From IMG/VR virus record IMGVR_UViG_2541047931_000014, positions 1 through 12,415 of that record: a DNA stretch of 12,415 nucleotides. One strand, given 5' to 3'. Below, piece after piece: positions 1 through 12,415 of this stretch (position 1 is its first letter; the number at the start of each line of letters is the position of its first letter). Below the pieces are notes generated by a model, which was not told where the DNA came from, did no database searches, and saw nothing but the letters and a program-made list of their open reading frames with translations. Origin of the DNA: a virus. Lineage: Duplodnaviria; Heunggongvirae; Uroviricota; Caudoviricetes. The position numbers and the translations under genes were made by a program.

Positions 1-177
1 GCGGAGGTAATACACCGTAAGAGCTGGAAAAACCGTGCAGAAGTGGAACTGGCCACACTCACGTGGGTGGACTGGTATAACAATCGACGATTGCTGGAAA
101 GGCTGGGCCATACTCCTCCGGCAGAAGCAGAAAAAGCTTATTATGCTTCCATCGGAAACGATGATCTGGCAGCCTGA
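1..177 (+). CDS. IS3-family transposase (OrfB-like), C-terminal fragment; 5' part lies outside the window
   Basis: Frame 1 reads ...LTWVDWYNNRRLLERLGHTPPAEAEKAYYASIGNDDLAA* with stop TGA at 175-177. The W-Y-N-x-R-R-L-x-x-x-L-G-x-x-P-P-x-E pattern is the conserved C-terminal tail of IS3-family DDE transposases (recalled family knowledge). The track ORF 35..370 is a different frame. Confidence 0.6.
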   Translation, partial: AEVIHRKSWKNRAEVELATLTWVDWYNNRRLLERLGHTPPAEAEKAYYASIGNDDLAA

Positions 178-280
178 GTTCACAGATAAAACACTCTCCA
201 GGAAACCCGGGGCGGTTCAATCCGTACGGGGACGGGATACCGTTTTAATTCACAACAGCGAACAGAGTAATTACAGGGGA
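1..280 (+). mobile_element. Right end of an IS3-family insertion sequence (partial); exact terminal inverted repeat not identified
   Basis: The transposase ORF ends at 177 and the next gene's RBS and start are at about 275-287, so the IS terminus must lie in about 180-280. I cannot place the inverted repeat without its left-end partner. Confidence 0.4.
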
Positions 281-284
281 AGGC

Positions 285-782
285 ATGACAAAGCTGACCA
301 TAAACAGAAAACCGAAGGGCATTTACGGCACGCCGCAGAAAACAGCACAGGCGGCGCAGCAGCAGAATAAAACCACATCGGCGCATAAAGTGATGCCAGA
401 TAACCAGAACACACAGCAGAAGCTCACAGGAGCAACACCGCGGCGGCGTATGACCAAACAGCAGCGTAAAAACCGCAGACGCGTTAACCGTCTTATTGAG
501 CTATGGCCTGAATTATTCAGCCAGGAATCACCTAAGCCGCTTAAGGTGGGGATATTTGACGACCTGATACAGGATATTGCCGCGAGAGGTATTTCACTCG
601 GACAGGGAACACTACGCGCAACGCTGGCGCGTTATGTGCAGACTCCGCGCTATTACCGCGCCCTGGTAGCTGGTGGCGCGCGTTACGACCTGAAAGGCCA
701 GCCGTGCGGCGAGGTAACACCACTACAACAGACGCACGCAGGAAAACTACTGGAGGAGATGAATGGAAATAGTAAGAAATGA
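285..782 (+). CDS. ProQ/FinO-family RNA-binding protein (FinO-like RNA chaperone) with a basic, Gln-rich N-terminal extension
   Basis: ATG at 285 preceded by AGGGGAAGG. The C-terminal half reads [14 protein letters not shown]...[37 protein letters not shown], matching the ProQ/FinO domain signature as I recall it from E. coli ProQ (PLKIGIF.DL ... Y ... G..R.DL.G.PCGE). The N-terminal ~75 aa are K/R/Q-rich and low complexity. Confidence 0.75.
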
Positions 783-1179
783 TCACGCACATGGTCGCCG
801 TGCAGGTGATCACATTGTGGATGAAATTGCGGAAAAACAAAGAGTTGACATTGTTGTCAGTGTCACAGTCGAGAGCGCGAAGCGCCAAAATAAGCGTATA
901 AATGATCATTCAGATGTACATGGTGTGATCACTCGTTTACGCCAGACTTTTGTAACTCGTGAAGAGATGATTGAAGCTATTGACCAGCATACAGCATGTA
1001 TCAGCGTCAGGGATATACCGGAGATCATTGCTAACTACTTCATGATCACCAGACGCCTTTACCGGAGAAAAGACAAGAGCACGGTTAACCGTCTCCTGAT
1101 GTCTGATATTCGCGAATACCTGCAAGAAAGGGGCTATGTGAATCCACCAGAACAGCACTACGGAAGAGTCGGAGGCTAA
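763..1179 (+). CDS. Hypothetical protein, 138 aa, translationally coupled to the upstream FinO-like gene
   Basis: ATG at 763 preceded by GGAGGAG (752-758); overlaps the 3' end of the FinO-like gene by 20 nt. No recognisable motif. Confidence 0.5.
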
Positions 1180-1419
1180 CTAAAACCCTGTACCGAAGAG
1201 CGGCGGCGCGATGGGGTGAAGTAATGCAGTTGGGGAACTGACAAGGAACGGTATTACATATCAATGCGACGACTGGAATGTTCCAGGAAGGCACAGAGGC
1301 CACCGAAGCAACCGGATAATTTAGAAGACCTGAAACGGTCGCTTAAACGCACTGAAAAAGAAATGGGGATAGATGGGATCGGGAAATCAGTATGGCGTAA
1401 CTACCAGAAGTAAGCACAG

Positions 1420-1445
1420 AGCCGGAGCAATCCGGCTTTTTTTTG
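1420..1445 (+). terminator. Rho-independent terminator
   Basis: AGCCGGA-GCAA-TCCGGCT hairpin (1420-1437) followed by an 8-T run (1438-1445). Confidence 0.65.
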
Positions 1446-1544
1446 GCTGAAATCAATCAATCTGTTTTTGTGATAGAAATATGTTTATCTACCACTTTTT
1501 CAGATCAATAATGTGCATAGTTTAGTCAGTAAGAGGAAATTGCT

Positions 1545-1751
1545 GTGAATTGTATTAACGACCTGAACACAGGCGATGTCAGAGGTGGTTCCGTTCATCT
1601 GGATGCACAGACCGTGATGCGCCTTAAGCAGTACAGAATCGACCATGTGAACAATCACCCTGATCAGCCATTACCAGGCGTGGCGCAGATTGTCAGACAT
1701 GCCGTAAACGCCTGGCTTAATCAGAATGGTTTTGCATCGGGGGGTGAGTAA
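1545..1751 (+). CDS. Small hypothetical protein (68 aa); possible small DNA-binding regulator (speculative)
   Basis: GTG start at 1545 with AAGAGGAAA about 8 nt upstream, lying 100 nt after the terminator in an AT-rich promoter-like stretch. The segment GSVHLDAQTVMRLKQYRID ... VAQIVRHAVNAWL loosely resembles a strand-helix-helix layout, but this is not a confident call. Confidence 0.4.
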   Translation: MNCINDLNTGDVRGGSVHLDAQTVMRLKQYRIDHVNNHPDQPLPGVAQIVRHAVNAWLNQNGFASGGE

Positions 1752-1847
1752 TGAATCGCTGGTACAGCATCAAAGCAGAGGGACGCCAATGTTATCTAAC
1801 TCAGGTTTTATGAATTCTGACTCCCGATTCAAAATAGGAGGTTACTA

Positions 1848-4379
1848 ATGCCAGTCGTACCAACAGTATCCGGACGTCAGGTTGAGAGCCGTGGAGTTCA
1901 GTCAGCAGGCTTACAGACGTTTTCTCAGCCAGGTATTAGTGATGCTTTTGTTCGTGCAGGAGCAGAAGCAATTGATATTCTGGGTCAGGCAAAACAGCGT
2001 GCCAATATTGCCTTGGTTCAGGAGGCATCCCTTAAACTCAGTCAGACAGGCAGTGATCTGCTGAATAATCCTGAAACAGGATTGCTTAACCTGAAAGGGA
2101 AAAATGCTATTGGAAAAGGCCATGAGTATACACAGCAGTTTGATGCTCAGATCGAACAACTGGCTATGTCGCTGCCGGATGAACAGGCTCGTAATGCTTT
2201 CATGCAGCAGGCGCAGCAGCAGCGTATTCAGTTCGCTACGCAGGCCGGGAGGTACGAGATAGGGCAAATAAATGCCTACGAAGAAGGCCAGTTTCAGGCT
2301 ACGCTGCTGAACAATGGTAAAAATGCCGCAGCATTGTATGGCGACAACGCAGCATACATATTGGCTAATACGCAAACTTTCCAGCAAATTGAGGAGTACG
2401 GCATTGCGCATGGCTGGAGCGACGAGCAGATTCGGGCCAGGAAAATCGAGTTTAAAGAAGCAACAGCAAAAGCAACTGCTCAAAATGCTATTGGAGCAAA
2501 CTATCTTCAGGTAAGACAGCAAAACGGCGAGTTAAGCGATACTGCTGCTGGAGCTCGCCGTGCTGTAGCAGATAGTGGATCTTCCGATCGTATCCGCGGT
2601 ATACGCAACAATAACCCCGGCAATCTTGAATACAGCAAAACTAATCCGTGGGTTGGGCAGACTGGTGATGATGGTCGCTTTGCCAAATTCGAAACCCCTG
2701 AACACGGTATTCGTGCATTAGGGCGGAACCTGATGTCGTATCAGCGGCAGGGTATTGATACCGTCAGTGAGATAATTAATCGCTGGGCACCGCCCACTGA
2801 TAAAAATGACACAATGTCGTATATCAAAGCAGTGTGCGAACAACTTGGCGTTTCTGCTGATGAGCCTCTCGATGCATCTAATCCGGATACCCTGAAGGCG
2901 CTTTGTGCAGCCATTATCCATCATGAAAACGGTAGCCAGCCATACAGTGATCAGCAGTTAACTGCTGGTGTTAGTGCCGCGCTGGGGCTTTCTCAGCTAC
3001 CGACAAAAAATAAACGTTATACCGGTGTAGCCTGGTTCGATGCTTTAAGTGAATCAGATCAGGCCAGCGTGTTGCGACAGACTGATGCACTAGCCAGACA
3101 ACAGCAGGCTGAATATAAAACGATGCTCGACAGCCGGGTTCGCGATGCGACGGCTGCGTATATGCGTGGCGTTGAATTTCCTAACCCACCTGGTGAGGAT
3201 GATTTTATTGCAGCTTATGGAGTCAGAGAAGGAAACCTGCGATATACCGAGTTTAAGAATACGCAGATCGCCGGACAGTATATAGGCTCTTTCCGCAACA
3301 TGCCGACAAGCAGCATTACAGCATATGTTGAGCAATTACGCCCGGATACTGGTGATACAGGGGAGGGGTATGCGTCTCGTGCGGAGTTATTCGACCGGGT
3401 ATCGGCGGCAGCCACGAAGGTAATAACCCAGAGGCAGAATAATCCGTTTAGTGCAGCGGTGGAAATCGGATCCTATAAGCCGATCACCAGCAACAACCCT
3501 GACGACATCACTGCTGAGGTGGCTAACCGTTTCTCGTCGCAGGAAAGCTTACGCGCGTTGGGAATTAATGCCCCAATCCTCAATAGTGAAGAGGCGGCTG
3601 CGCTGGCACAGCAGGTGCGCGGCACTCAGAACGTTGACCAGACAATTAAACTATTGCAGAGCATGGGGGAAAAGCTACCTGCGCCAGCAATACGGCAGGT
3701 GGCATCTGTAATTGCTCCGAACAGTGCAGCAACAGCCTATTCTGCGCTGCTGCTGGGCACGCCGGATAATCAGTACGATAACACCAGGCCGTCGATCCCA
3801 TATAGTCAGTTCATCGGGTATAAGCCGACGATGAACAAGTACGACGTTGCAAAGGTTATTCTTTCCGGTGACCAACTACTGAATCCGACGAAGGCTATGA
3901 AGAATGCGGGCATAACTCCGGTACAGTTGCCGAGCGAAGATAAAATGAAGCGCGCTTTCGACGAACAGGTTGGTAATGCATTTGCCCGTAACCCAGAGAC
4001 GCGCCAGATCAGTTATAGCCTTTTCAAAGCCGCTTACGCAGGAATCGCTTATCAGTCTGGTAATACGTCTATGACGAGCACAGATGCGGTTAACTCCGAT
4101 GTGGCGGAGAAAGCTGCGCAGTACGCAACAGGCGGTGTATACAAGAGATTTAATGGTGGTGATGTTGTAATGCCTTTCGGCATGGATGAATCCACTTTCA
4201 AAGATCGCTATACCACATCAGCGAAACAAGCACTGAAAGATGCCGGACTTAACGTAAATGCAGTGTCAAACTTCACACCAGTTAATATCGGCAATAACCG
4301 GTATCGGCTGGTAAATGGTAGCGGACGCTGGGCAACAGATCCCAGAACCAATGAAGCTATTGTCGTGAGGGTTGAATAA
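1848..4379 (+). CDS. Large hypothetical protein (843 aa); phage ejection/internal-virion-like, with a conserved-looking NNPGN region that may be a cell-wall-hydrolase-like domain
   Basis: ATG at 1848 with AGGAGG at 1836-1841; 2.5-kb uninterrupted frame; Ala/Gln/Gly-rich. RIRGIRNNNPGNLEY...GRFAKFETPEHGIRALGRNL...INRWAPP lies at about nt 2590-2950. No Walker A or helicase motifs. Confidence 0.85.
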   Translation: MPVVPTVSGRQVESRGVQSAGLQTFSQPGISDAFVRAGAEAIDILGQAKQRANIALVQEASLKLSQTGSDLLNNPETGLLNLKGKNAIGKGHEYTQQFDAQIEQLAMSLPDEQARNAFMQQAQQQRIQFATQAGRYEIGQINAYEEGQFQATLLNNGKNAAALYGDNAAYILANTQTFQQIEEYGIAHGWSDEQIRARKIEFKEATAKATAQNAIGANYLQVRQQNGELSDTAAGARRAVADSGSSDRIRGIRNNNPGNLEYSKTNPWVGQTGDDGRFAKFETPEHGIRALGRNLMSYQRQGIDTVSEIINRWAPPTDKNDTMSYIKAVCEQLGVSADEPLDASNPDTLKALCAAIIHHENGSQPYSDQQLTAGVSAALGLSQLPTKNKRYTGVAWFDALSESDQASVLRQTDALARQQQAEYKTMLDSRVRDATAAYMRGVEFPNPPGEDDFIAAYGVREGNLRYTEFKNTQIAGQYIGSFRNMPTSSITAYVEQLRPDTGDTGEGYASRAELFDRVSAAATKVITQRQNNPFSAAVEIGSYKPITSNNPDDITAEVANRFSSQESLRALGINAPILNSEEAAALAQQVRGTQNVDQTIKLLQSMGEKLPAPAIRQVASVIAPNSAATAYSALLLGTPDNQYDNTRPSIPYSQFIGYKPTMNKYDVAKVILSGDQLLNPTKAMKNAGITPVQLPSEDKMKRAFDEQVGNAFARNPETRQISYSLFKAAYAGIAYQSGNTSMTSTDAVNSDVAEKAAQYATGGVYKRFNGGDVVMPFGMDESTFKDRYTTSAKQALKDAGLNVNAVSNFTPVNIGNNRYRLVNGSGRWATDPRTNEAIVVRVE

Positions 4380-6439
4380 TGTCTGATGTTTTTTCTTTGG
4401 CTCCAGAAGGTCAGGCATGGATTGACGACAAAACAGTTGCCAACCCAGCAAGGCCAGAAGACTACGATCCGACTCCCTTCCAGGGTTCAGGTACTGCACT
4501 TTTTAGCGGCGTGGCGGAGGGGGCTCTCGGTCTCGCGCAGTCTGCCGTCGGATTCAGCAAGCGCCTGATTAGCGATCCGGCATTTACCGCAGACGTGGCA
4601 CCGACTGTTAACATTTTTCGGGAGATGTTCCCTGATGCTGACAAAACACTGAATGATACATACGACACGATCGGAAAACAGTTACAGGATGCCCGCAGCT
4701 ATGTGAAGCCTGATGCAGGCAGCCAGGGAATGGCGGCAGAGGTATTAAATGAGCTTGGTAAATTTGTTCCTGCAATCGGAACAACTATGTTTGGCGGTCC
4801 CCTCATCGGCGCTGCTACAACCTTCAGTTCTACGTATGAGCAATCCTATCAGGATTTTAAAGGGAAGGGAGTAGACGAGGCTACGGCGCGTAACCTGGCA
4901 ACGCAGCAGAGCCTTTTCAATGCTGTGGGTATGGCCTTACCCGCTGCCGTCGGCACCACACTGGCAACGCGCATTGCCTCAGGTGTGGCAATCAACACCG
5001 GATTCGGTGGACTGAACCGTTACTCAGTAGGCGCAACACTGGAGGAAAAAGGCTACACGGAGATGGCAAAACAGTACCGGGTATTTGACGGTCAGGCGAT
5101 GTTAGTCGATGCCGTTTTAGGCGGGGTCTTTGGTGGCGTTCATCACCTGACTACCCATAATAACCATGATGGTACAGAGTCGAACATTTCTGCAGAAGAA
5201 ATAAAATCAACTTTTGGTGAACATTATCAGCAATCTCCTGATGGTAACATTGAGTCAATGGTTCGTGATTTATCTGATTCAGGAGTAATAGAACTTATTA
5301 ATGAACCAGCAATAAAAAATAGTGATGGAGAAATACTTCTGAATAAAGGTCATGTGACAGTAGCTTCTGGAAAAGAACCAATAATAAGAATAAATATTAA
5401 TGGATTAAAAGACCATGAAGAACTGTTAGAAACCCTTCATCACGAGGCGCTTCATCTTGAGCAGCGCCATTACCCTGACTGGAAGGCCAGAAAGCTAGCT
5501 AATGCTGTACTTAAATCTGCAAACAAGCATTCTGACTATCCTGAATTTGCATATGGGATGTCACAATATTATGAATATAAGAAAAGGGGTGAGTACCCTG
5601 AAACATATCCTGAGTGGTTGTACGCTGAAGAAGTTGCCGCACATGCAGTAAATCCATCTCTAAAGACAAGCGTTTCATCATGGGAAAAAATTATTTCAGG
5701 TTTTAAAGCCTATATATTCAGATACAGTGGTATTCAGGTTGGAACCGTTACACCTGAGCAGTTACGGTTACTCGTAAGTATGCGTCTTCGCAATATGAAA
5801 CTGGAAGCCGCAGTAGAAAAAGTTTTTGGTATCCGGGCGAGGGAAAGAATAAAACCAAGCGATATTGATGCAGCCCACATTTTGAATGAGGGGCTTCATT
5901 ACGATATTGAATCGTCACCAGTGCTTCACACCAGCAATGAGAGCATCAACAGCCATGTTGACGCCATGGATGAAGCATACAGGCAACTTAATGATGGTCA
6001 GCCTGTAAATGTTGGGGGGATGGCGCGAGGGCTTGATGGTCCATTGCGATCAGATATATCTGATACTTACCAAGAGCAATACCATGAAATACAAAAGGTT
6101 TTTGAAGAAAATGGTGTCAGATATGAAACATCATCAGAGCCAATTAGTGAATCGCCTGTCCCTCGTGCTGAAAGTGCTTTCTCATCGGCTGGTGAACACA
6201 GAGGGGACGTCAGCGTTGATCCAGATACAGGGCAGGTTCTCTCATCCAACAGCTATGACCTTATGGCTGCCAGGGACATGGCTGTTGCCAATCCTGAGCT
6301 GACTATAGCTCACCCGGAAACCGGAAACCCGACAAAACTTTCTGATCTCCTGGCTGAGTTGGATGAACAGATTAAGACAGTCCAGAACGAATCGAAGGTT
6401 TATTCTGTAGCGGCAGCGTGCTTCTTGAGGAACCCATAA
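4379..6439 (+). CDS. Large hypothetical protein (686 aa); Gly-rich hydrophobic N-terminal half and a low-GC C-terminal segment containing an HEXXH (HEALH) motif
   Basis: ATG at 4379 overlaps the upstream stop (TAATG, 4377-4381). Gly/Ala-rich hydrophobic stretches (GTTMFGGPLIGAATTF, MALPAAVGTTLATRIASGVAINTGFGG, VDAVLGGVFGGV). HEALH is encoded at 5441-5455 within a segment of about 35% GC (about 5160-5760) versus roughly 45-57% in the flanking coding sequence. Confidence 0.85.
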   Translation: MSDVFSLAPEGQAWIDDKTVANPARPEDYDPTPFQGSGTALFSGVAEGALGLAQSAVGFSKRLISDPAFTADVAPTVNIFREMFPDADKTLNDTYDTIGKQLQDARSYVKPDAGSQGMAAEVLNELGKFVPAIGTTMFGGPLIGAATTFSSTYEQSYQDFKGKGVDEATARNLATQQSLFNAVGMALPAAVGTTLATRIASGVAINTGFGGLNRYSVGATLEEKGYTEMAKQYRVFDGQAMLVDAVLGGVFGGVHHLTTHNNHDGTESNISAEEIKSTFGEHYQQSPDGNIESMVRDLSDSGVIELINEPAIKNSDGEILLNKGHVTVASGKEPIIRININGLKDHEELLETLHHEALHLEQRHYPDWKARKLANAVLKSANKHSDYPEFAYGMSQYYEYKKRGEYPETYPEWLYAEEVAAHAVNPSLKTSVSSWEKIISGFKAYIFRYSGIQVGTVTPEQLRLLVSMRLRNMKLEAAVEKVFGIRARERIKPSDIDAAHILNEGLHYDIESSPVLHTSNESINSHVDAMDEAYRQLNDGQPVNVGGMARGLDGPLRSDISDTYQEQYHEIQKVFEENGVRYETSSEPISESPVPRAESAFSSAGEHRGDVSVDPDTGQVLSSNSYDLMAARDMAVANPELTIAHPETGNPTKLSDLLAELDEQIKTVQNESKVYSVAAACFLRNP

Positions 6440-9195
6440 TGAAACAGGCATGTGTTGAAGCTATTGCGCAGACACTTGGTCGCCAGCCAAAGGCTGATGA
6501 GCTGAAAAATATTGAAGATCGTATCAAAGAAGCTGTGCAGCATGTGCACAGAAAGAATGCAAAAGAAGGCAAAAGTGGTATTCCTGATGCTCAAACATAC
6601 ATGGATGCAGCAGAACTGGTACGCCAGCGTGTGGTTCATGATGTGTACAAGAAAAGACAGCGTGTTGCCCAGAATGCGATCGCCATCAGTAAAATTACTG
6701 ACACTCTCGATGCTAACATCCCGCCTGATCAGCAGACACCTGTTAATTTGCAGCAGTTTATTTTTGCTGGCCGACGATCGAGAGACAAAGCTGATATCTC
6801 CGTTACTTCTGCTGAAGAGCTTGCAATTGGGGCATATCAGGACTGGTCCCGTCAGCTCAGTGCTGAACTTCTAAAAGCAGGTGATGACGTCCGCAAATTC
6901 TTCGAGCAGAGCAGGGCGCTTGGAGAGCAGCGGTTTCGGAGTGTATTCGACAGGCAGGCGGCAAAGTCTGCACAACTCCAGATCCTGAAAGAAATTTATG
7001 GCGAAGATACCGGGAATCCCCTGGCGAAGAAAATTGCACAGATTTGGAAGGATGTAACAGGGCGTGTTCGTCATGAGATGAACGACAACGGCTTTGACAT
7101 AGGCCTGCGAGAAGACTGGCATACGCCATATGTGGATGATGCTGACCTTATTCGCAATGCCGGGCGCGAAGAATGGCTGGCATCGTTACCAGTGGCAGAG
7201 CAAGCTACAGTACGTCTTTCAGGTCGCCAGCCACCTATTGAGTTTGCCCGCCAGAAATGGGTTGATGACGCTTACAACACGCAGGATCGCAGCAATTACG
7301 TTAATCCTGACGGCAGCATTATGAATGACGTCGAGTACCGTCAGGCACTGGAAGCGATCTTTGAAACGAAGGCCACTGATGGGGCAAACAAAATTGAGCC
7401 CGGTACATTTATGGGAGACGGAGGAATAAAGAGCCGTGGTTCTCAGCACAGGGTGATGGCGTTCAAGGATGCGCAGTCACACTTCGCCTATATGGAGCGA
7501 TACACTCAGCAGCCGCTGGTGGGGGTGATGATGTCGCACCTGCAATCATCATCCAGGGATTTGGGCGTCGTTAAAGCCTTTGGTCCGGACGCCGAAAGAA
7601 ACTTTTCCCTGGTACTGGATCGCATCTATAAGCGCGCAGTAACAGGCGGGAAACGCAAAAAAGAAATGGAGGATGAGGCCAAATTAGTTGCCCGTATGTT
7701 CAACTCAATGGCTGGCCTAAATGGTGTCGCTTCATCGAGTGTGTTCTCTTCAGCAGTTGGTGGTCTGCGTAACCTGATGACCAGCGCCATGCTTGGCACC
7801 AGCGTACTGACAGCAACCAGCGACCAGGCAATTATGCGGGCAAATGCGCAGGCGCTGGGCTTTACCCGTGGTGGAATGCGGCTTTCCGTTAACACTATCA
7901 AAAACCTGTTTAGTGGAGATGCCAAAAAGGCGAATGCTGAACTCGGTCTGCTGGTGGATTCACATGCTGCTGTGGTTTCGAAAATGGGCGGGTTTGACTT
8001 GTCTCGCGGCATAACTGGCTGGTTCGCAGAGAAGACACTGAAGTGGTCCGGGCTGATCGCTATGGACCGCGCAAACAAAGCGTCGTTTGGTCTCCTGATG
8101 TACAAAAACATTGGCGAGCTGACCAGAAAATTTAAGACGCTGGACGATATAAAAGGAACCGATAAAACCATTCTGGCTAACAAGGGATGGAGCAATGAGG
8201 ACTGGGCCATCATGGCAGCGGCAGAACTCAGGCCGATGACTACTGCCGGGCATATGGGGATGACGCCAGACGCGATTTACGCTGTGCCCGATAACGTAAT
8301 CGCCGACATTATGGCAGACCGTATTGCCCGGATTCGTGCCGGGAGTGAAAAGGCACTGGCAGCCCTTGGAGATCTCCCTCCAGAACGCCTGAAACGGATG
8401 AAAGAAGCATTCGACGCAGAGGCTGAGCAGACCATCACGCGCATGATTCGTAATGCACGCGCTGAAGCAGCCCAGAAATTGCTGGGAATTACGCACGGTG
8501 AGATGACCAATGCTGTGACCACCGCTACGGGTATTGATACATATGCCCATGACGATGCTGGCGAGTTAATGAAGAGCTTCATGCTCTTCAAAACAACCCC
8601 ATTTGCTGGATTTCGGCAACTTGTTAACAGAACACGGGATTTGGACACCGTTCCGGCCATTAAATTTCTGGCCTCATATATCGGGGGAACAACTCTTGCT
8701 GGTATGTTTGCGATCCAGATGAACAGTTTGTTAAATGGTAATGATCCGCTGGATATGACAAAACCAACCACATGGGTTCAGGCTTTACTGAAAGGTGGTT
8801 CGTTCGGTATCTACGGTGATTTTATTTTCCAGGACCATACGCAATATGGCTCCAGCATCGGTGCCACTATGGGTGGCCCTGTGTTGAGCTTTGCAGAGCA
8901 GTTAACAAAATTACTGATTACTAACCCACAGAAGGCTCTACAGGGTGAAGAAACATCATTCGGTGCCGATGCACTGAAAACAGCCCGCATGATCACCCCA
9001 TTCGCAAACCTGTGGTATGCGAAAGCGATAACCAATCACCTGATATTGCAACAACTTCAGGAGATGGCAAACCCTGGTTACAATGATCGAGTAAGGGACC
9101 GCGCGCAACGGGAGTTCGACATAACGAGTTGGTGGGAACCGGGTGCTATTGCGCCACGTAGAGCACCGGATTTTGGAAAGGCGGTAGGGGAATGA
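6439..9195 (+). CDS. Large hypothetical protein (918 aa from the ATG at 6439; the track's 6418 start is an upstream in-frame GTG); ejection/internal-virion-like
   Basis: ATG at 6439 overlaps the upstream stop in the same TAATG arrangement (6437-6441), with GAGGAA 7 nt upstream. 2.75-kb frame. No nucleotide-binding motifs seen. Confidence 0.85.
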   Translation: MKQACVEAIAQTLGRQPKADELKNIEDRIKEAVQHVHRKNAKEGKSGIPDAQTYMDAAELVRQRVVHDVYKKRQRVAQNAIAISKITDTLDANIPPDQQTPVNLQQFIFAGRRSRDKADISVTSAEELAIGAYQDWSRQLSAELLKAGDDVRKFFEQSRALGEQRFRSVFDRQAAKSAQLQILKEIYGEDTGNPLAKKIAQIWKDVTGRVRHEMNDNGFDIGLREDWHTPYVDDADLIRNAGREEWLASLPVAEQATVRLSGRQPPIEFARQKWVDDAYNTQDRSNYVNPDGSIMNDVEYRQALEAIFETKATDGANKIEPGTFMGDGGIKSRGSQHRVMAFKDAQSHFAYMERYTQQPLVGVMMSHLQSSSRDLGVVKAFGPDAERNFSLVLDRIYKRAVTGGKRKKEMEDEAKLVARMFNSMAGLNGVASSSVFSSAVGGLRNLMTSAMLGTSVLTATSDQAIMRANAQALGFTRGGMRLSVNTIKNLFSGDAKKANAELGLLVDSHAAVVSKMGGFDLSRGITGWFAEKTLKWSGLIAMDRANKASFGLLMYKNIGELTRKFKTLDDIKGTDKTILANKGWSNEDWAIMAAAELRPMTTAGHMGMTPDAIYAVPDNVIADIMADRIARIRAGSEKALAALGDLPPERLKRMKEAFDAEAEQTITRMIRNARAEAAQKLLGITHGEMTNAVTTATGIDTYAHDDAGELMKSFMLFKTTPFAGFRQLVNRTRDLDTVPAIKFLASYIGGTTLAGMFAIQMNSLLNGNDPLDMTKPTTWVQALLKGGSFGIYGDFIFQDHTQYGSSIGATMGGPVLSFAEQLTKLLITNPQKALQGEETSFGADALKTARMITPFANLWYAKAITNHLILQQLQEMANPGYNDRVRDRAQREFDITSWWEPGAIAPRRAPDFGKAVGE

Positions 9196-9533
9196 AAAAG
9201 TTAAATACACCAACCAAAAGAGTTGGGGGGCTTCTGATTGTCATTGGAATTATATTTATACTTGCATCTATAATAGAAATATCAAGTAATGAGTTTGCTA
9301 TTTCTGATAGTCCATATTATCGATCGCTAAATGCATATGATATTATTTTTATGTATTTAGAGCGAATTACAGATACTTTCATCATGACTCTAACATTTCA
9401 AACATGGAGTAGCCGTTTCAGTATATTAATGTTAGTAGGGTTTTGTTTATTTATTGTTGGTGTTCTTATTTCATATTTTTACGATGCTGGAATTGGCAGG
9501 GTTGTTAAGTGGATAAGAACGGGTAATTGGTGA
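9192..9533 (+). CDS. Small integral membrane protein (113 aa, two predicted transmembrane helices), very low GC; candidate exclusion/immunity-type cargo
   Basis: ATG at 9192 overlaps the upstream stop (ATGA, 9192-9195). Hydrophobic stretches LLIVIGIIFILASII and FSILMLVGFCLFIVGVLISYF. GC is visibly much lower than in the upstream genes. Confidence 0.7.
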   Translation: MKKLNTPTKRVGGLLIVIGIIFILASIIEISSNEFAISDSPYYRSLNAYDIIFMYLERITDTFIMTLTFQTWSSRFSILMLVGFCLFIVGVLISYFYDAGIGRVVKWIRTGNW

Positions 9534-9864
9534 TTATAAGCAAGCTATTGGTTTCATTGTTTATATCGTTGTCGGAACTTTTTCAACTGACAGCAATCAT
9601 AGCCGGGCTTGAATCGTGGTGGGGATTGCACTGGATAATTGCAGCCCCATTGCTTTCATCGTGAGCTATATTCCATTTGTTGGAGCGATTGTTGGTATGG
9701 TTGGCGCTATGGATGTATGGTGTTGGGAGTGGTGGCAGGCTGGCCTTCTATTCTTTGGCGGATCATCTTTGCTATTGTCAGCGGTGGAATGTCATCATTT
9801 TTCGAATGGCTATCATTCAGAAAAAGAGCGTGACATGTCACAGGCCGCTTTCGCGGCCTTGTTT

Positions 9865-10026
9865 TTAACGAATGCCACCACCGCCCGGGCGGGAATCCGC
9901 AGAACGCCCACCGCAGCGGGAGCCGTCAGCGGCAGTATCGCTGTCGTGCTGACAACGACCGGCAAAGGCCTGAGTTGAAGCTACCAGAGACAACAAAACG
10001 AACAGTGCAGCAAATGCTTTTTTCAT
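9865..10026 (-). CDS. Candidate small secreted peptide (53 aa) with an N-terminal Sec-type signal peptide
   Basis: Minus-strand ATG at 10026-10024 encodes MKKAFAALFVLLSLVASTQAFA|GRCQHDSDTAADGSRCGGRSADSRPGGGGIR, with an AxA-type cleavage site. Candidate promoter TTGACG-N16-TATAGA lies just upstream on the minus strand (about 10040-10070). It is antisense to overlapping plus-strand ORFs, so assignment is uncertain. Confidence 0.35.
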   Translation of the reverse strand: MKKAFAALFVLLSLVASTQAFAGRCQHDSDTAADGSRCGGRSADSRPGGGGIR

Positions 10027-10096
10027 TGTGAAATTTCCATCTATAAGCCACCTCGATGTGGCGTCAATGAATGTAGCACTGACTTTTGTTTCGTCC

Positions 10097-10119
10097 ACAA
10101 AAAAGCCCGCGCTGCGGGC
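10097..10119 (-). terminator. Rho-independent terminator acting on the minus strand
   Basis: GC-rich hairpin GCCCGC-GCT-GCGGGC (10105-10119) preceded on the plus strand by an A-run (10097-10104), so the minus strand reads hairpin then TTTTTTGT. Confidence 0.5.
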
Positions 10120-10728
10120 TTACCAAAACTTGTACCACGGGGATTTATCCTTCAATGGACAATCCTTCCATCGTGTGGCCAGCCATTCATATTCTTTGTC
10201 TTTTCTTCAGTACCGGCTTTGCATCTTCTACACCCTGAAAGATGTCGTTTTATGGTGTATCTGATGATTTATTCCCTAACAATAGATATTCGAAAAATTA
10301 ATCAGTTAAAACAATTATTTGGATAATTTCAGGTAAAAACTATCTTAATCTTCTGGTGGATCTCAATGCGCCGTGACGGTATCGGGATTAAGGGCGTGGA
10401 TATTCGCGATATATGCCGCTACACCCCTCAACAGTAATAGATATGCGCTTTTCACTCTCTCCTTTCACTGCTGAGAACGGCAACAACGTGCCACAGGAAC
10501 GCGCTGTAATCGATTCTGACGCACTTAATTGCGTTGGGTAATGGTTTGCCAGCCTGTGGGGGTAACTCTGTTTTATGAGGCTTTGGCTATAGTGCAAAAA
10601 TGCACTTTGTCTTGCCTCTCAATTTGATGAGACTGGAACGACAACAGGACAGACCACCAGCAACAGTTACCGTATTCAGCCGTTCTGTGGCACCAGTGGA
10701 ACTATCCACCCCTGCTTTCAGCAATGTG

Positions 10729-10782
10729 TTTGCGGGTTATTTTGGGGCGTTTGCGGGTTATTTGGGATGTTTTGCGGGTTAT
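10729..10782. repeat. Iteron-like array: three perfect 12-bp direct repeats TTTGCGGGTTAT at 21-bp phasing
   Basis: Copies at 10729-10740, 10750-10761 and 10771-10782, separated by 9-bp spacers. Confidence 0.85.
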
Positions 10783-10857
10783 GCGATGCTTGAATAATGA
10801 ACAGTGCATTTTGCAACATATTGATACTAAAGAACAAAAAATAGTTAGCACGCTAAG

Positions 10858-10884
10858 ATAACCCGGTAACCCGCATAACCCGCA
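10858..10884. repeat. Three tandem inverted copies of the iteron core
   Basis: ATAACCCGG (10858-10866), TAACCCGCA (10867-10875) and ATAACCCGCA (10875-10884) are reverse complements of TGCGGGTTAT. They are separated from the direct array by a 75-bp AT-rich spacer. Confidence 0.75.
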
Positions 10885-11406
10885 CTGTTTTGTATATATA
10901 TACGAAAAATTGCATTCAGGAGGGGGGATCGAAATCCCTACAACCCATTGCTTATGGGACCGCCGCCTCGTCAAATTTTTACACCCGCGAAATAAAAAAT
11001 ACTTCACGCTGGTGGGCATGATGCTGATATGAGAGGCTTCCATAACGCCACCATTCGAAACTATGCAAATCTGCATAGAAAAGGGGATGCCTGATACAAT
11101 ACCCTCGCCCGATAAAATCACACCGATAAACTCATCTGCCACGAGTAGAAAGAGCGAACGAACCCGATACGCAGTAATGCTGGTCGGGTCCAGCTTTTTA
11201 AGGCGGCTGTAGATATCAGGCCATCCGTGATCATCCACCAGCGTAATTGCTGAACGCTTTAAAAAAACGTGTACATAAGGGTGTACATAATCAAAAACCG
11301 CATTAGAAAGAAACCAGCTACAATGCGGCATTGAAGCCAACACTCTACAAACAGATTCAACATCGAATAACTCGTAACGCCAATTCTTACTTTTCCGCCT
11401 TCACAA

Positions 11407-11438
11407 ATGCCGCCACTCAAACAGAGCGGCATTTTTCT
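11407..11438 (+). terminator. Rho-independent terminator with no plus-strand ORF feeding into it (orphan)
   Basis: ATGCCGC - 11-nt loop - GCGGCAT (11407-11431) followed by TTTTTCTT. All three plus-strand frames are closed immediately upstream. Confidence 0.5.
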
Positions 11439-11530
11439 TCCCCGCAACATTCAATTCTGTTTTGCGTGCCTGCTCCAGATTTTGCGATGTTTTTTTGCCC
11501 AGCACACTGAGAACGTGAGATACTCACAAC

Positions 11531-11546
11531 TGTATATAAATACAGT
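11531..11546 (+). promoter_or_regulatory. LexA operator (SOS box) in the dinD promoter
   Basis: CTGTATATAAATACAG matches the CTGT-N8-ACAG consensus and sits 45 nt upstream of the dinD start, overlapping a TATATAAAT -10-like element. Confidence 0.8.
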
Positions 11547-11590
11547 TACAGATTTACTTTCTTTGCAATTGATATCACATGGAGTGGGCA

Positions 11591-12415
11591 ATGAACGAAC
11601 ATCATCAACCTTTTGAAGAGATAAAACTGATTAATGCAAACGGAGCAGAACAATGGTCAGCAAGACAACTTGGGAAACTACTGGGTTATTCAGAGTATCG
11701 TCACTTTATACCTGTATTAACGCGCGCCAAAGAAGCCTGTGAGAACAGTGGTCACACAATTGATGACCATTTCGAGGAGATCCTCGATATGGTCAAAATT
11801 GGCTCAAATGCCAAAAGAGCATTAAAAGACATCGTACTCTCCCGCTATGCCTGTTACCTGGTAGTACAAAACGGCGCCCCTGCGAAACCGGTCATTGCGG
11901 CAGGGCAGACTTATTTTGCTATCCAGACCCGACGGCAGGAGCTTGCTGACGATGAAGCATTTAAGCAACTTCGTGAAGACGAAAAGCGTCTGTTTCTGAG
12001 AAATGAGTTGAAAGAACATAACAAACAATTGGTTGAGGCAGCACAGCAAGCTGGGGTAGCGACAGCTACTGATTTCGCCATATTTCAGAATCATGGTTAC
12101 CAGGGGCTGTATGGTGGATTAGATCAGAAAGCTATTCATCAGCGGAAGGGGCTGAAAAAGAATCAGAAGATCCTGGATCATATGGGTTCAACAGAACTGG
12201 CGGCTAATCTCTTTCGAGCTACCCAAACAGAAGAAAAACTCAAGCGGGATGGCGTGAATTCAAAACAGCAAGCAAACACCACACACTTTGACGTGGGTCG
12301 CAAGGTGAGGCAAACCATTCAGGAACTTGGCGGAACCATGCCTGAGGAGTTGCCGACCCCGCAGGTCAGCATCAAGCAGTTGGAAAACAGTGTAAAAATT
12401 ACAGAGAAGAAATAG
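11591..12415 (+). CDS. dinD: DNA-damage-inducible protein D (DinD), apparently intact at 274 aa
   Basis: ATG at 11591 with GGAGTGGG just upstream (the track's 11579 start is an upstream in-frame alternative). The sequence MNEHHQPFEEIKLINANGAEQWSARQLGKLLGYSEY... matches E. coli DinD as I recall it, and the LexA box directly upstream supports SOS regulation. Stop TAG at 12413-12415. Confidence 0.8.
   Translation: MNEHHQPFEEIKLINANGAEQWSARQLGKLLGYSEYRHFIPVLTRAKEACENSGHTIDDHFEEILDMVKIGSNAKRALKDIVLSRYACYLVVQNGAPAKPVIAAGQTYFAIQTRRQELADDEAFKQLREDEKRLFLRNELKEHNKQLVEAAQQAGVATATDFAIFQNHGYQGLYGGLDQKAIHQRKGLKKNQKILDHMGSTELAANLFRATQTEEKLKRDGVNSKQQANTTHFDVGRKVRQTIQELGGTMPEELPTPQVSIKQLENSVKITEKK

Follow-up and report, generated by a model that had tools for sequence, protein, structure and literature searches.

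The coupled genes and their Uetakevirus counterparts

The stretch of DNA considered here, which we call the window, comprises 12,415 nucleotides of a Caudoviricetes record (IMGVR_UViG_2541047931_000014, positions 1 to 12,415), and much of it is taken up by an operon of three large genes and one small gene, A, B, C and D, that lies within a mobile island of Escherichia coli and Escherichia albertii (Table 1). An earlier description made from the letters alone, the sequence-only reading, had pointed to a chain of stop/start overlaps coupling the four genes, and these are present on checking the sequence: TAATG at 4377-4381, TAATG again at 6437-6441 and ATGA at 9192-9195, with an AGGAGG ribosome-binding site ahead of A. 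It had also recorded an insertion sequence (IS) fragment and a FinO-like gene flanking the operon and a small open reading frame (ORF) upstream of it, all of which we find, the first as the C-terminal 58 amino acids of an IS3-family transposase (positions 1-177; Pfam rve_2/rve_3), and it had remarked on the lack of capsid, portal, terminase and tail genes, which holds both for the window and for the complete 20-kb island.

All three large proteins match phage families in PHROG (A phrog_992, 1.9e-297; B phrog_1145, 5.4e-136; C phrog_684, 3e-295), over their full length in A and C and over both conserved ends in B. Amino-acid identity to the proteins of Salmonella phage epsilon15 is about 80% between A and gp15, 89% between C and gp17 and 67% overall between B and gp16, rising to 89% in the N-terminal part of B, while the DNA of A-C is 76-79% identical to that of gp15-gp17. 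Judged by these similarities, A, B and C are homologues of the virion core or injection proteins of Uetakeviruses (epsilon15 gp15-gp17, phiV10 p18-p20), A being the homologue of gp15 and p18, B that of gp16, and C that of gp17, with a distant relationship to p20 (27-30% amino-acid identity). The assignment of the three proteins to the virion-internal or injection type of podoviruses, made in the sequence-only reading from their size and layout, is thus borne out, and no homology of any of them to a non-phage family was found. Since the junctions of gp15, gp16, gp17 and gp18 in epsilon15 are the identical series of TAATG, TAATG and ATGA, the overlaps along the chain from A to D are, by this comparison, inherited from the phage ancestor type and no product of chance.

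In the genomes of epsilon15 and phiV10, these genes follow the portal and capsid genes, those for the tail proteins gp11-gp12 and those for the internal proteins gp13-gp14. The core proteins of epsilon15 have reportedly been found in virions and seen to be ejected, in studies by Jiang (2006), Chang (2010) and Guichard (2013). Upon infection, epsilon15 is reported to eject internal proteins that form a tube across the envelope (reviewed in PMC8954989), and gp15 and gp17/16 are listed among the parts of the injection apparatus (PMC12391199). Because gp14 of epsilon15, encoded just upstream of gp15, belongs to the Pfam family T7_gp14 (PF24072, 31.3 bits; the RefSeq label of a prophage gene is likewise 'T7 gp14 family'), gp15-gp17 correspond positionally to T7 gp15/gp16. 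The likeness of the module to T7 gp14/gp15/gp16 and P22 gp7/gp20/gp16 lies in this shared genome position in the parent phage and in the presence of large internal proteins, one of them muralytic; the difference is that its muralytic domain sits in the first large protein and not in the last, and that A, B and C show no sequence similarity to the T7 or P22 ejection proteins in Pfam or PDB, where searches with single sequences and profiles, a comparison that the sequence-only reading had proposed, returned only the muralytic domain.

That domain marks the one respect in which the earlier account of the large proteins fell short, since it had described them only as lacking ATPase or nuclease motifs; the rest of its sequence description is accurate. 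In A, residues 250-403 (nucleotides 2595-3056) form a peptidoglycan-hydrolase domain (PDB 9vvp_L Gp29, 3e-38; endolysin 7q47). Over this region of A (window 2650-3050, nucleotides ~800-1200 of the gene), copies of the island differ from one another at 38-39 positions per 200 nucleotides, against 0-16 in the other bins, and the variable patch looks like a recombination patch. B aligns with epsilon15 gp16 at its two ends (residues 1-272 and ~520-686), between which a centre of about 240 residues (~273-515, nucleotides ~5195-5923, GC content 41%) with an HEALH motif of the HExxH type replaces the coiled-coil-like middle of gp16. Searches of Pfam, of 5.8 billion proteins by word index and of 1.84 billion representative proteins turned up no homologue of this centre, and a single-sequence AlphaFold model, with a pLDDT of 51, was not used for a fold search. 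The centre, which is identical in two phages, L029 and L031, may be an enzyme domain that is injected.

A hydropathy scan of D picks out two long hydrophobic stretches (residues 6-38 and 71-102), and D answers to the small membrane protein that was said to follow the large genes; in A, B and C, no hydrophobic stretch reaches a Kyte-Doolittle value of at least 1.6 over 19 residues. The comparison of D with P22 sieA, by contrast, gains no sequence support from Pfam, PHROG or PADLOC, and D is coupled to a late structural gene. No significant match to D exists in Pfam, NCBIfam or PADLOC, and its PHROG match is weak (0.0075). The slot that follows C is in fact hypervariable for small hydrophobic proteins, which measure 113 amino acids in the window, 104 in most islands and in phage L029, 128 in L031, 64 in epsilon15 (gp18) and 46 in phiV10 (p21), with coordinates, beside those of D, of 20348-20662 in L022, 19326-19520 in L017 and 19345-19485 in L002. 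The slot proteins of the islands and of epsilon15 are start-coupled to C, and the different versions are dissimilar to one another and match no family. The version in the window is found in only eight of 37 islands, the other islands examined having the unrelated 104-residue protein.

Table 1. Features of the 12,415-nucleotide window, in order of position
Feature	Position	Strand	Remarks
3' end of IS3-family insertion sequence	1-219	+	outside the island; homology to other islands begins at 220
ssb, 3' end	222-248	+	last 9 codons (...PYGDGIPF, stop); island gene cut by the IS
ProQ/FinO-family gene	285-782	+	island backbone; PF04352, 1.3e-24
138-residue backbone gene	763-1179	+	no assigned function; conserved in all island copies
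PerC-family regulator pseudogene	1187-1412	+	frameshifted; broken frames in window
Intrinsic terminator closing the upstream unit	1418-1447 (terminator 1418-1439)	+	hairpin conserved in sister PICIs
Non-coding control region of PICI late operon	1448-1544	+	AATCTnTTTTTnTGATAGAAATAT...
up68	1545-1751	+	68 residues; first gene of PICI late operon; phrog_4934, 1.9e-31
Scar of protease/major-capsid fusion gene	1751-1813	+	TAATG-coupled to up68; 20-codon ORF
A	1848-4379	+	843 residues
B	4379-6439	+	686 residues
C	6439-9195	+	918 residues
D	9192-9533	+	113 residues
3' flank after module	9521-10122		94% identity to the DNA that follows p20/p21 in a Uetakevirus prophage of the co-resident type
Small membrane-protein gene	~9539-9835		frameshifted; within the 3' flank
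Terminator	9842-9859		in the 3' flank, which also has a small minus-strand ORF
Island right arm	10123-11351	-	includes 213-residue ORF 10702-11343
attR, repeat of yicC 3' end	11352-11370	+	CAGATTCAACATCGAATAA; chromosomal DNA from here
dinD	11579-12415	+	core chromosomal gene, outside the island

The late-operon slot and the island around it

The module is preceded not by phage morphogenesis genes, with no capsid gene immediately upstream where the sequence-only reading had advised looking for one, but by the leader of an operon known from another kind of element, the phage-inducible chromosomal islands (PICIs). Beyond the terminator that closes the upstream unit lies a control region that is conserved across PICIs of E. 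coli, Citrobacter and Enterobacter; neither Uetakeviruses nor EcCIMP1, an E. coli PICI to which we return below, possess it. It is followed by up68, whose product looks ribbon-helix-helix-like by eye, has no tblastn match in phage records and shares 74-90% amino-acid identity with the leaders of sister PICIs. In those sisters, which have the same backbone of integrase, AlpA, DUF4222 and primase, up68 is translationally coupled to a gene for a ClpP-protease/major-capsid fusion protein, after which comes DUF1441. The window retains the beginning of such a gene: the first ~10 codons of a short ORF coupled to up68, MNRWYSIKAE, match the starts of the capsid fusions (MNHWYTIKAA in L006, MKNWYTIKAS in L026), and the ribosome-binding site and start of A come ~55 nucleotides further on. 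Because the scar persists between up68 and A, the module can be said to have replaced the capsid cargo of a satellite late operon, and on the evidence of the leader and the scar, the slot that it occupies is the one in which sister PICIs hold the protease/capsid fusion gene. We found no sigma-70 consensus promoter between the upstream terminator and up68, which, together with a control motif that Uetakeviruses lack, would fit a satellite-controlled, activator-dependent expression of the module.

In E. coli M21170 (L001), the DNA corresponding to the window from position 220 on belongs to an insert of 20,104 bp that separates the 3' end of yicC from dinD and has an imperfect direct repeat of 21 bp on its two sides (L001 8815-8835 and 28940-28960). 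The comparison with a strain lacking the insertion that the sequence-only reading had called for is provided by K-12, where the site between yicC and dinD is empty (L003 2816-2836). In strain 2022E04-002, an island of 20,210 bp sits instead in a tRNA-Gly gene, within an exact 19-bp direct repeat and with a different integrase block, and is 97.9% identical to that of M21170 from Rha to the right end; the same layout is found in E. albertii as in E. coli. Gene order in M21170 runs from an integrase through a hypothetical gene, AlpA, Rha, AntA/B, Bro-N, two small reverse genes, an Icd-like gene, a further hypothetical gene and DUF4222 to a DUF927 primase, SSB, ProQ/FinO, the 138-residue gene, the PerC pseudogene, up68, A-D and a short right arm. 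Pfam identifies a P4-type integrase (Arm-DNA-bind_3/Phage_integrase), Phage_AlpA (26.4 bits, cut-off 21), DUF4222 and the DUF927 primase, the Icd-like, SSB and PerC genes being named by RefSeq annotation; integrase, AlpA and primase share one orientation, and further copies of the island keep the same order. Beyond the three virion-protein genes A-C, no morphogenesis or lysis gene was found with Pfam and PHROG, no known defence system was matched by PADLOC, and the module is the only part of the island that resembles Uetakeviruses in its DNA.

The element is a discrete island of the PICI type, a predicted phage satellite, inserted site-specifically at the yicC 3' end or in tRNA-Gly. Having its own integrase, AlpA and primase, direct repeats at two sites, a range of two host species and an intact A-C, it is not a decayed prophage, one of the two explanations offered in the sequence-only reading, and we reject that candidate. 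One trait ascribed to PICIs, the absence of phage structural genes, does not apply here because of the three virion-protein genes, an exception that EcCIMP1 shares and that capsid-forming PICIs (cf-PICIs) make more strongly.

EcCIMP1 excises only upon induction of the podovirus vB_EcoP_Kapi1, is transduced by Kapi1 and makes Kapi1 lysogens more immune to superinfection (Pick, Stadel & Raivio, ISME J 2025, PMC11773190). It resembles the island in its size of ~20 kb, about half the helper genome, in its integrase, AlpA, DUF4222, Icd-like and PerC genes, in a DUF927 primase and an AntA/B protein that are 62% and 60% identical in amino acids to those of the island, and in an operon downstream of the primase of which only the 5' end is helper-like in DNA. 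That operon encodes a DUF2824 protein, a protein of the P22_gp7 family (1.9e-72), a member of the P22 gp20 family (Inj_translocase) and a 906-residue protein with an SLT domain and is, by these family matches, an injection operon of the P22 type, unrecognised as such by its authors, who called the genes no more than 'similar to DNA transfer proteins' and suggested that they act in packaging (PMC11773190). The two elements differ in that the EcCIMP1 module is of the P22 type and includes a protein of the gp7/gp14 class, whereas that of the island is of the epsilon15/phiV10 type and has none; EcCIMP1, moreover, resides in tRNA-Thr, has neither the up68 leader nor a shared control motif, and is experimentally proven to be mobilised, whereas mobilisation of the island is predicted.

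The PICIs with up68 and a capsid fusion, for example a helper-embedded element of E. coli UK_Dog_Liverpool (compare the HE-PICIs of PMC10111431) and free-standing elements of Citrobacter and Enterobacter, share with the island the integrase, AlpA, Icd-like gene, DUF4222, primase and sometimes SSB, as well as the control region and leader. They are, however, ~10 kb long, with head and packaging genes aimed at lambda-like siphoviruses, whereas the island measures ~20 kb, holds podovirus injection genes and has in addition Rha, AntA/B, Bro-N, ProQ and the 138-residue protein. In Uetakeviruses, conversely, it is the late segment itself that is alike, gp15-gp18 and p18-p21 being homologous to A-D with the same order, junctions and downstream terminator region, but the phage segment comes directly after the portal, capsid and gp11-gp14 genes and that of the island after a primase/SSB/ProQ block and a PICI leader.

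Distribution, allele exchange and maintenance

The window-type module occurs, at 96.3-99% identity, in 37 of 5426 complete E. coli genomes and in every one of these in the context of the island; nine further records have the same backbone running into the A gene, without the window-type interior, so that the island family is present in ~46 of the 5426. In a scan with A of one genome per species, ten loci were found in other Enterobacterales. Four of them were inspected, and each belongs to a Uetakevirus prophage of the ordinary kind, in which portal, capsid and gp11-gp14 genes lie directly upstream of the A homologue, so the stand-alone arrangement is not general outside Escherichia in that collection.

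Exchange of alleles with phages is evident. ETEC1749, the one inspected of the nine further records, has on the same backbone and joined to it at the same point a phiV10-type module (837, 600 and 824 amino acids, followed by a membrane protein of 98) that is 97.3% identical to phage phiV10, while the true Uetakevirus L029 has B and C at 99.6% and 99.3% identity to the window, together with the B centre and a 104-residue slot protein, and L031 has the same set of 843-, 686- and 918-residue genes; in both of these contigs, portal, capsid and gp11-gp14 genes lie directly upstream. With at least two module types, each found in islands and in phages, islands and phages share one pool. A B-C allele peculiar to satellites, which we had considered, is withdrawn, as the identical allele occurs in L029 and L031. 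The alleles of an island and of the prophage resident in the same cell can differ, as they do in strain PU-1. Part of the variation, clearly in A, has been imported by recombination. E. coli phages of the phiV10 type share 89-97% of their DNA sequence with the opening 1.5 kb of A and with ~600 bp that follow D. For phiV10-like prophages resident in E. coli, identity over the 5' 1.5 kb of A (1837-3382) is 96-97%, the remainder of the gene being a different allele.

These observations bear on a reading in which the island has no need of the proteins and the module serves as a handle for recombination or a reservoir of alleles. Its 1.5-7.4 kb of DNA identical to that of the helper would allow the excised island to join replicating helper concatemers and be packaged by the headful without a pac site of its own, or the island shuttling alleles between phages. 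Flanks of the module that are 94-97% identical to resident prophages around a swappable interior, alleles that are both common to phages, the lack of a recognised terS gene or pac site on the island and a dN/dS ratio (non-synonymous to synonymous substitution) that is the same for islands as for phages, as expected of imported variation, all agree with it. DNA homology alone, on the other hand, would not keep all 2447 codons free of interruption in each of the copies checked, next to genes that are decaying, nor would it call for a precise graft into an expression slot behind a late-operon leader, with a ribosome-binding site of its own, and EcCIMP1 has a full P22-type set with only ~370 nucleotides of helper-like DNA; we regard this reading as improbable.

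The genes themselves have stayed open. Each of the ten copies checked, eight from islands and two from phages, encodes A, B and C at full length. When islands are compared in pairs, dN/dS comes to 0.24 (A), 0.07 (B) and 0.14 (C), with no difference from island-phage comparisons, while around them the PerC gene is frameshifted and, in the window, the small membrane-protein gene after D is broken. It would be hard to square this with an inert fragment of a decayed Uetakevirus prophage that has come to lie by chance beside unrelated island genes and has no function, an account suggested by phage-derived genes that stand without the rest of the phage and by the IS elements that have hit the island in some strains, including that of the window. 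A family of ~46 genomes with two alleles, a gene order that stays the same between two att sites, between different integrases and between two species, ten intact copies out of ten at dN/dS values of 0.07-0.24 and the precise replacement of the capsid gene of a PICI operon make such a remnant very improbable indeed.

The features adjoining the operon are those of the island backbone and its junction with the chromosome. In other copies of the island, ssb is intact, and in the strain of the window it is interrupted by the IS3-family element nine codons upstream of its stop. The 138-residue gene has only weak PHROG matches, to N-terminal regions of Ant and terminase proteins. RefSeq marks the PerC gene as frameshifted in all four RefSeq-annotated island copies inspected, which may be a tolerated loss or a programmed frameshift. 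Of the small membrane-protein gene after D, prophages L018 and L021 have a version of 98 amino acids and L005 one of 78, the copy in the window having lost its ATG as well as its frame; a 195-bp stretch in the same flank (9904-10098) is also present in L005 and is missing from the M21170 island. The right arm of a satellite is the usual site of accessory or defence cargo, and here it has an ORF of 213 amino acids (234 in M21170) that is conserved in other island copies and matches nothing in Pfam, PHROG, NCBIfam or PADLOC. The E. coli yicC-end/dinD region (window 11352-12415) recurs at 99.7% identity in two phage records of Campylobacter, MG065686 and MG065691, most likely through contamination or misassembly.

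Proposed helper exploitation and what it would mean

On balance, we think it somewhat more probable than not that the module is a captured Uetakevirus injection set on a PICI-type satellite, supplying, as we infer, injection proteins to particles that a helper builds. When a podovirus of the phiV10/epsilon15 type, whether resident or incoming, enters lytic growth, the satellite would excise and replicate, A to D would then be expressed late as one translationally coupled unit, and their proteins would be built into helper-made capsids, the helper-like N-terminal half of A being a candidate determinant of fit. In the next infection, the ejected proteins would open the cell wall by means of the hydrolase domain of A and help the satellite DNA across the envelope. 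The helper would have to supply the homologues of gp13 and gp14 along with the capsid, portal, tail and terminase, and two satellite copies (~40.2-40.4 kb) would roughly fill one of its headfuls (a 39.7-kb genome). As to the benefit, our guess is independence from the injection-protein allele of the helper or escape from exclusion aimed at that allele: given that the specificity of SieA exclusion in P22 maps to the ejection proteins gp16 and gp20 (PMC10461980), a satellite entering helper lysogens might, speculatively, gain from a different allele. The arrangement would resemble that of cf-PICIs in that the satellite contributes part of the virion and relies on the helper for the remaining components; it differs from it in that cf-PICIs make capsid, portal, connectors and terminase and take only tails, whereas the island encodes none of those, would bring internal or injection proteins only and retains merely a 10-codon scar of a protease/capsid gene.

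A link to such a helper is apparent in the genomes of the carriers. The Uetakevirus morphogenesis region is present in 502 genomes, ~9% of complete E. coli, and a composite query ranked the island carriers first; a second match to Uetakevirus protease-capsid genes occurs in 26 of the 37 carriers against 521 of 5389 other genomes (9.7%; odds ratio 22, Fisher p = 2e-18), an association weakened by the fact that the test ignores strain relatedness and that only one such second match, that of PU-1, was inspected. It proved to be a complete Uetakevirus prophage of 39,742 bp at guaA with a phiV10-type allele, and the island is 0.51 of its length, the same ratio as that of EcCIMP1 (19,963 bp) to Kapi1 (39,436 bp). 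PU-1 is a septicaemic pig strain whose prophage encodes a K1-capsule-specific endosialidase tailspike (L021 35654-38773), and several island carriers are O2:K1-type avian pathogenic or extraintestinal pathogenic E. coli (APEC/ExPEC). Besides PU-1, strains ExPEC XM and APEC E18055 are taken to be natural double carriers of island and helper.

Several further points weigh against a particle-borne injection set and its helper. In 11 of the 37 carriers, no Uetakevirus prophage is detectable. Homologues of gp13 and gp14 are absent from the island, which leaves the injection set incomplete, and no terminase small subunit, pac site or capsid-redirecting gene is recognised on it, nor was any regulatory motif or pac-like DNA found to be shared between island and helper. 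Being imported in part by recombination, the variation makes a low dN/dS no proof in itself of selection within islands. The only phenotype of EcCIMP1 that is possibly tied to its injection region is superinfection immunity, with no better transfer reported. The module would be the cargo of a predicted Uetakevirus satellite. The junctions of the attP that we predict, GAAGCCAACACTCTACAAA-CAGATyCAGAAyATyGAATAA-GCTATCAGCAAAAATC, are absent from IMG/VR, where three contigs carrying the island are collinear with its integrated form. A right-end/core/left-end junction is present in a related tRNA-Gly-type island, at 14390-14428 of metagenome contig L037 (Ga0209547_100127, 1-14517), and this island would be either circular or, just as well, integrated in tandem. 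The cargo of L037 is a different one, comprising pieces of phrog_6216, a protein of 680 amino acids (phrog_7694) with a muralytic domain of the same type as that of A, and a protein like a terminase small subunit.

The immunity conferred by EcCIMP1 raises the question of whether A to D might act within the carrying cell, jamming the envelope channel of incoming Uetakeviruses or poisoning the helper core with an incompatible allele, with D or its alternatives in the slot as a membrane-level exclusion or immunity factor. EcCIMP1 has an analogous operon of the P22 type, protects lysogens against its helper and contains no known defence system; SieA specificity is set by ejection proteins, as noted above; the alleles of island and prophage differ in PU-1, B and C sharing only 27-30% amino-acid identity with p19 and p20 of the helper; and the membrane-protein slot is hypervariable. 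Yet the immunity of EcCIMP1 has not been mapped to its injection genes, and the terminator ahead of the operon, the want of a sigma-70 consensus and a control region that serves structural genes in sister PICIs suggest that virion parts are expressed late and upon induction; a decoy made up of full-length structural genes over 7.7 kb would be costly, PADLOC returns no match, and the same allele serves in real phages. We consider action of this kind unlikely, if well short of negligible, and the domestication for exclusion or envelope attack that the sequence-only reading had entertained is neither shown nor needed to account for a module that lies in a helper-exploitation operon of a PICI.

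The satellite tactics known so far are to resize the capsid of the helper, to redirect its packaging or, in cf-PICIs, to build heads of their own. Satellite-encoded DNA-injection proteins were not described in the literature that we searched, in which EcCIMP1 is the sole published carrier and went unrecognised as one, and injection-gene cargo suggests that satellites have a means of exploiting their helpers that has hardly been noticed. We propose, tentatively and with more doubt than confidence, that there is a distinct class of 'injection-protein-encoding' PICIs, parasites of short-tailed phages, using the capsid, tail and terminase of the helper with injection proteins of their own, of which the present island and EcCIMP1 would be the first two members; allele swaps would let the satellite, or phages recombining with it, switch the type of injection protein and so evade injection-level exclusion in helper lysogens, the very cells into which a satellite has most need to gain entry, and the half-helper size would reflect dimers packaged in unmodified helper heads.

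Were the proteins indeed loaded into particles, satellites would be practising a new kind of molecular piracy, directed at entry into the cell, and the idea is directly testable in that there are natural strains in which the island is accompanied by a helper whose allele is plainly distinct. Should the module act in the cell instead, it would represent a new principle of exclusion. If the proposal is true, satellites would also be a reservoir and an exchange route for the fast-evolving injection genes of temperate podoviruses that reside in ~9% of complete E. coli genomes, K1-capsule ExPEC and APEC among them, with a bearing on superinfection exclusion and host range.

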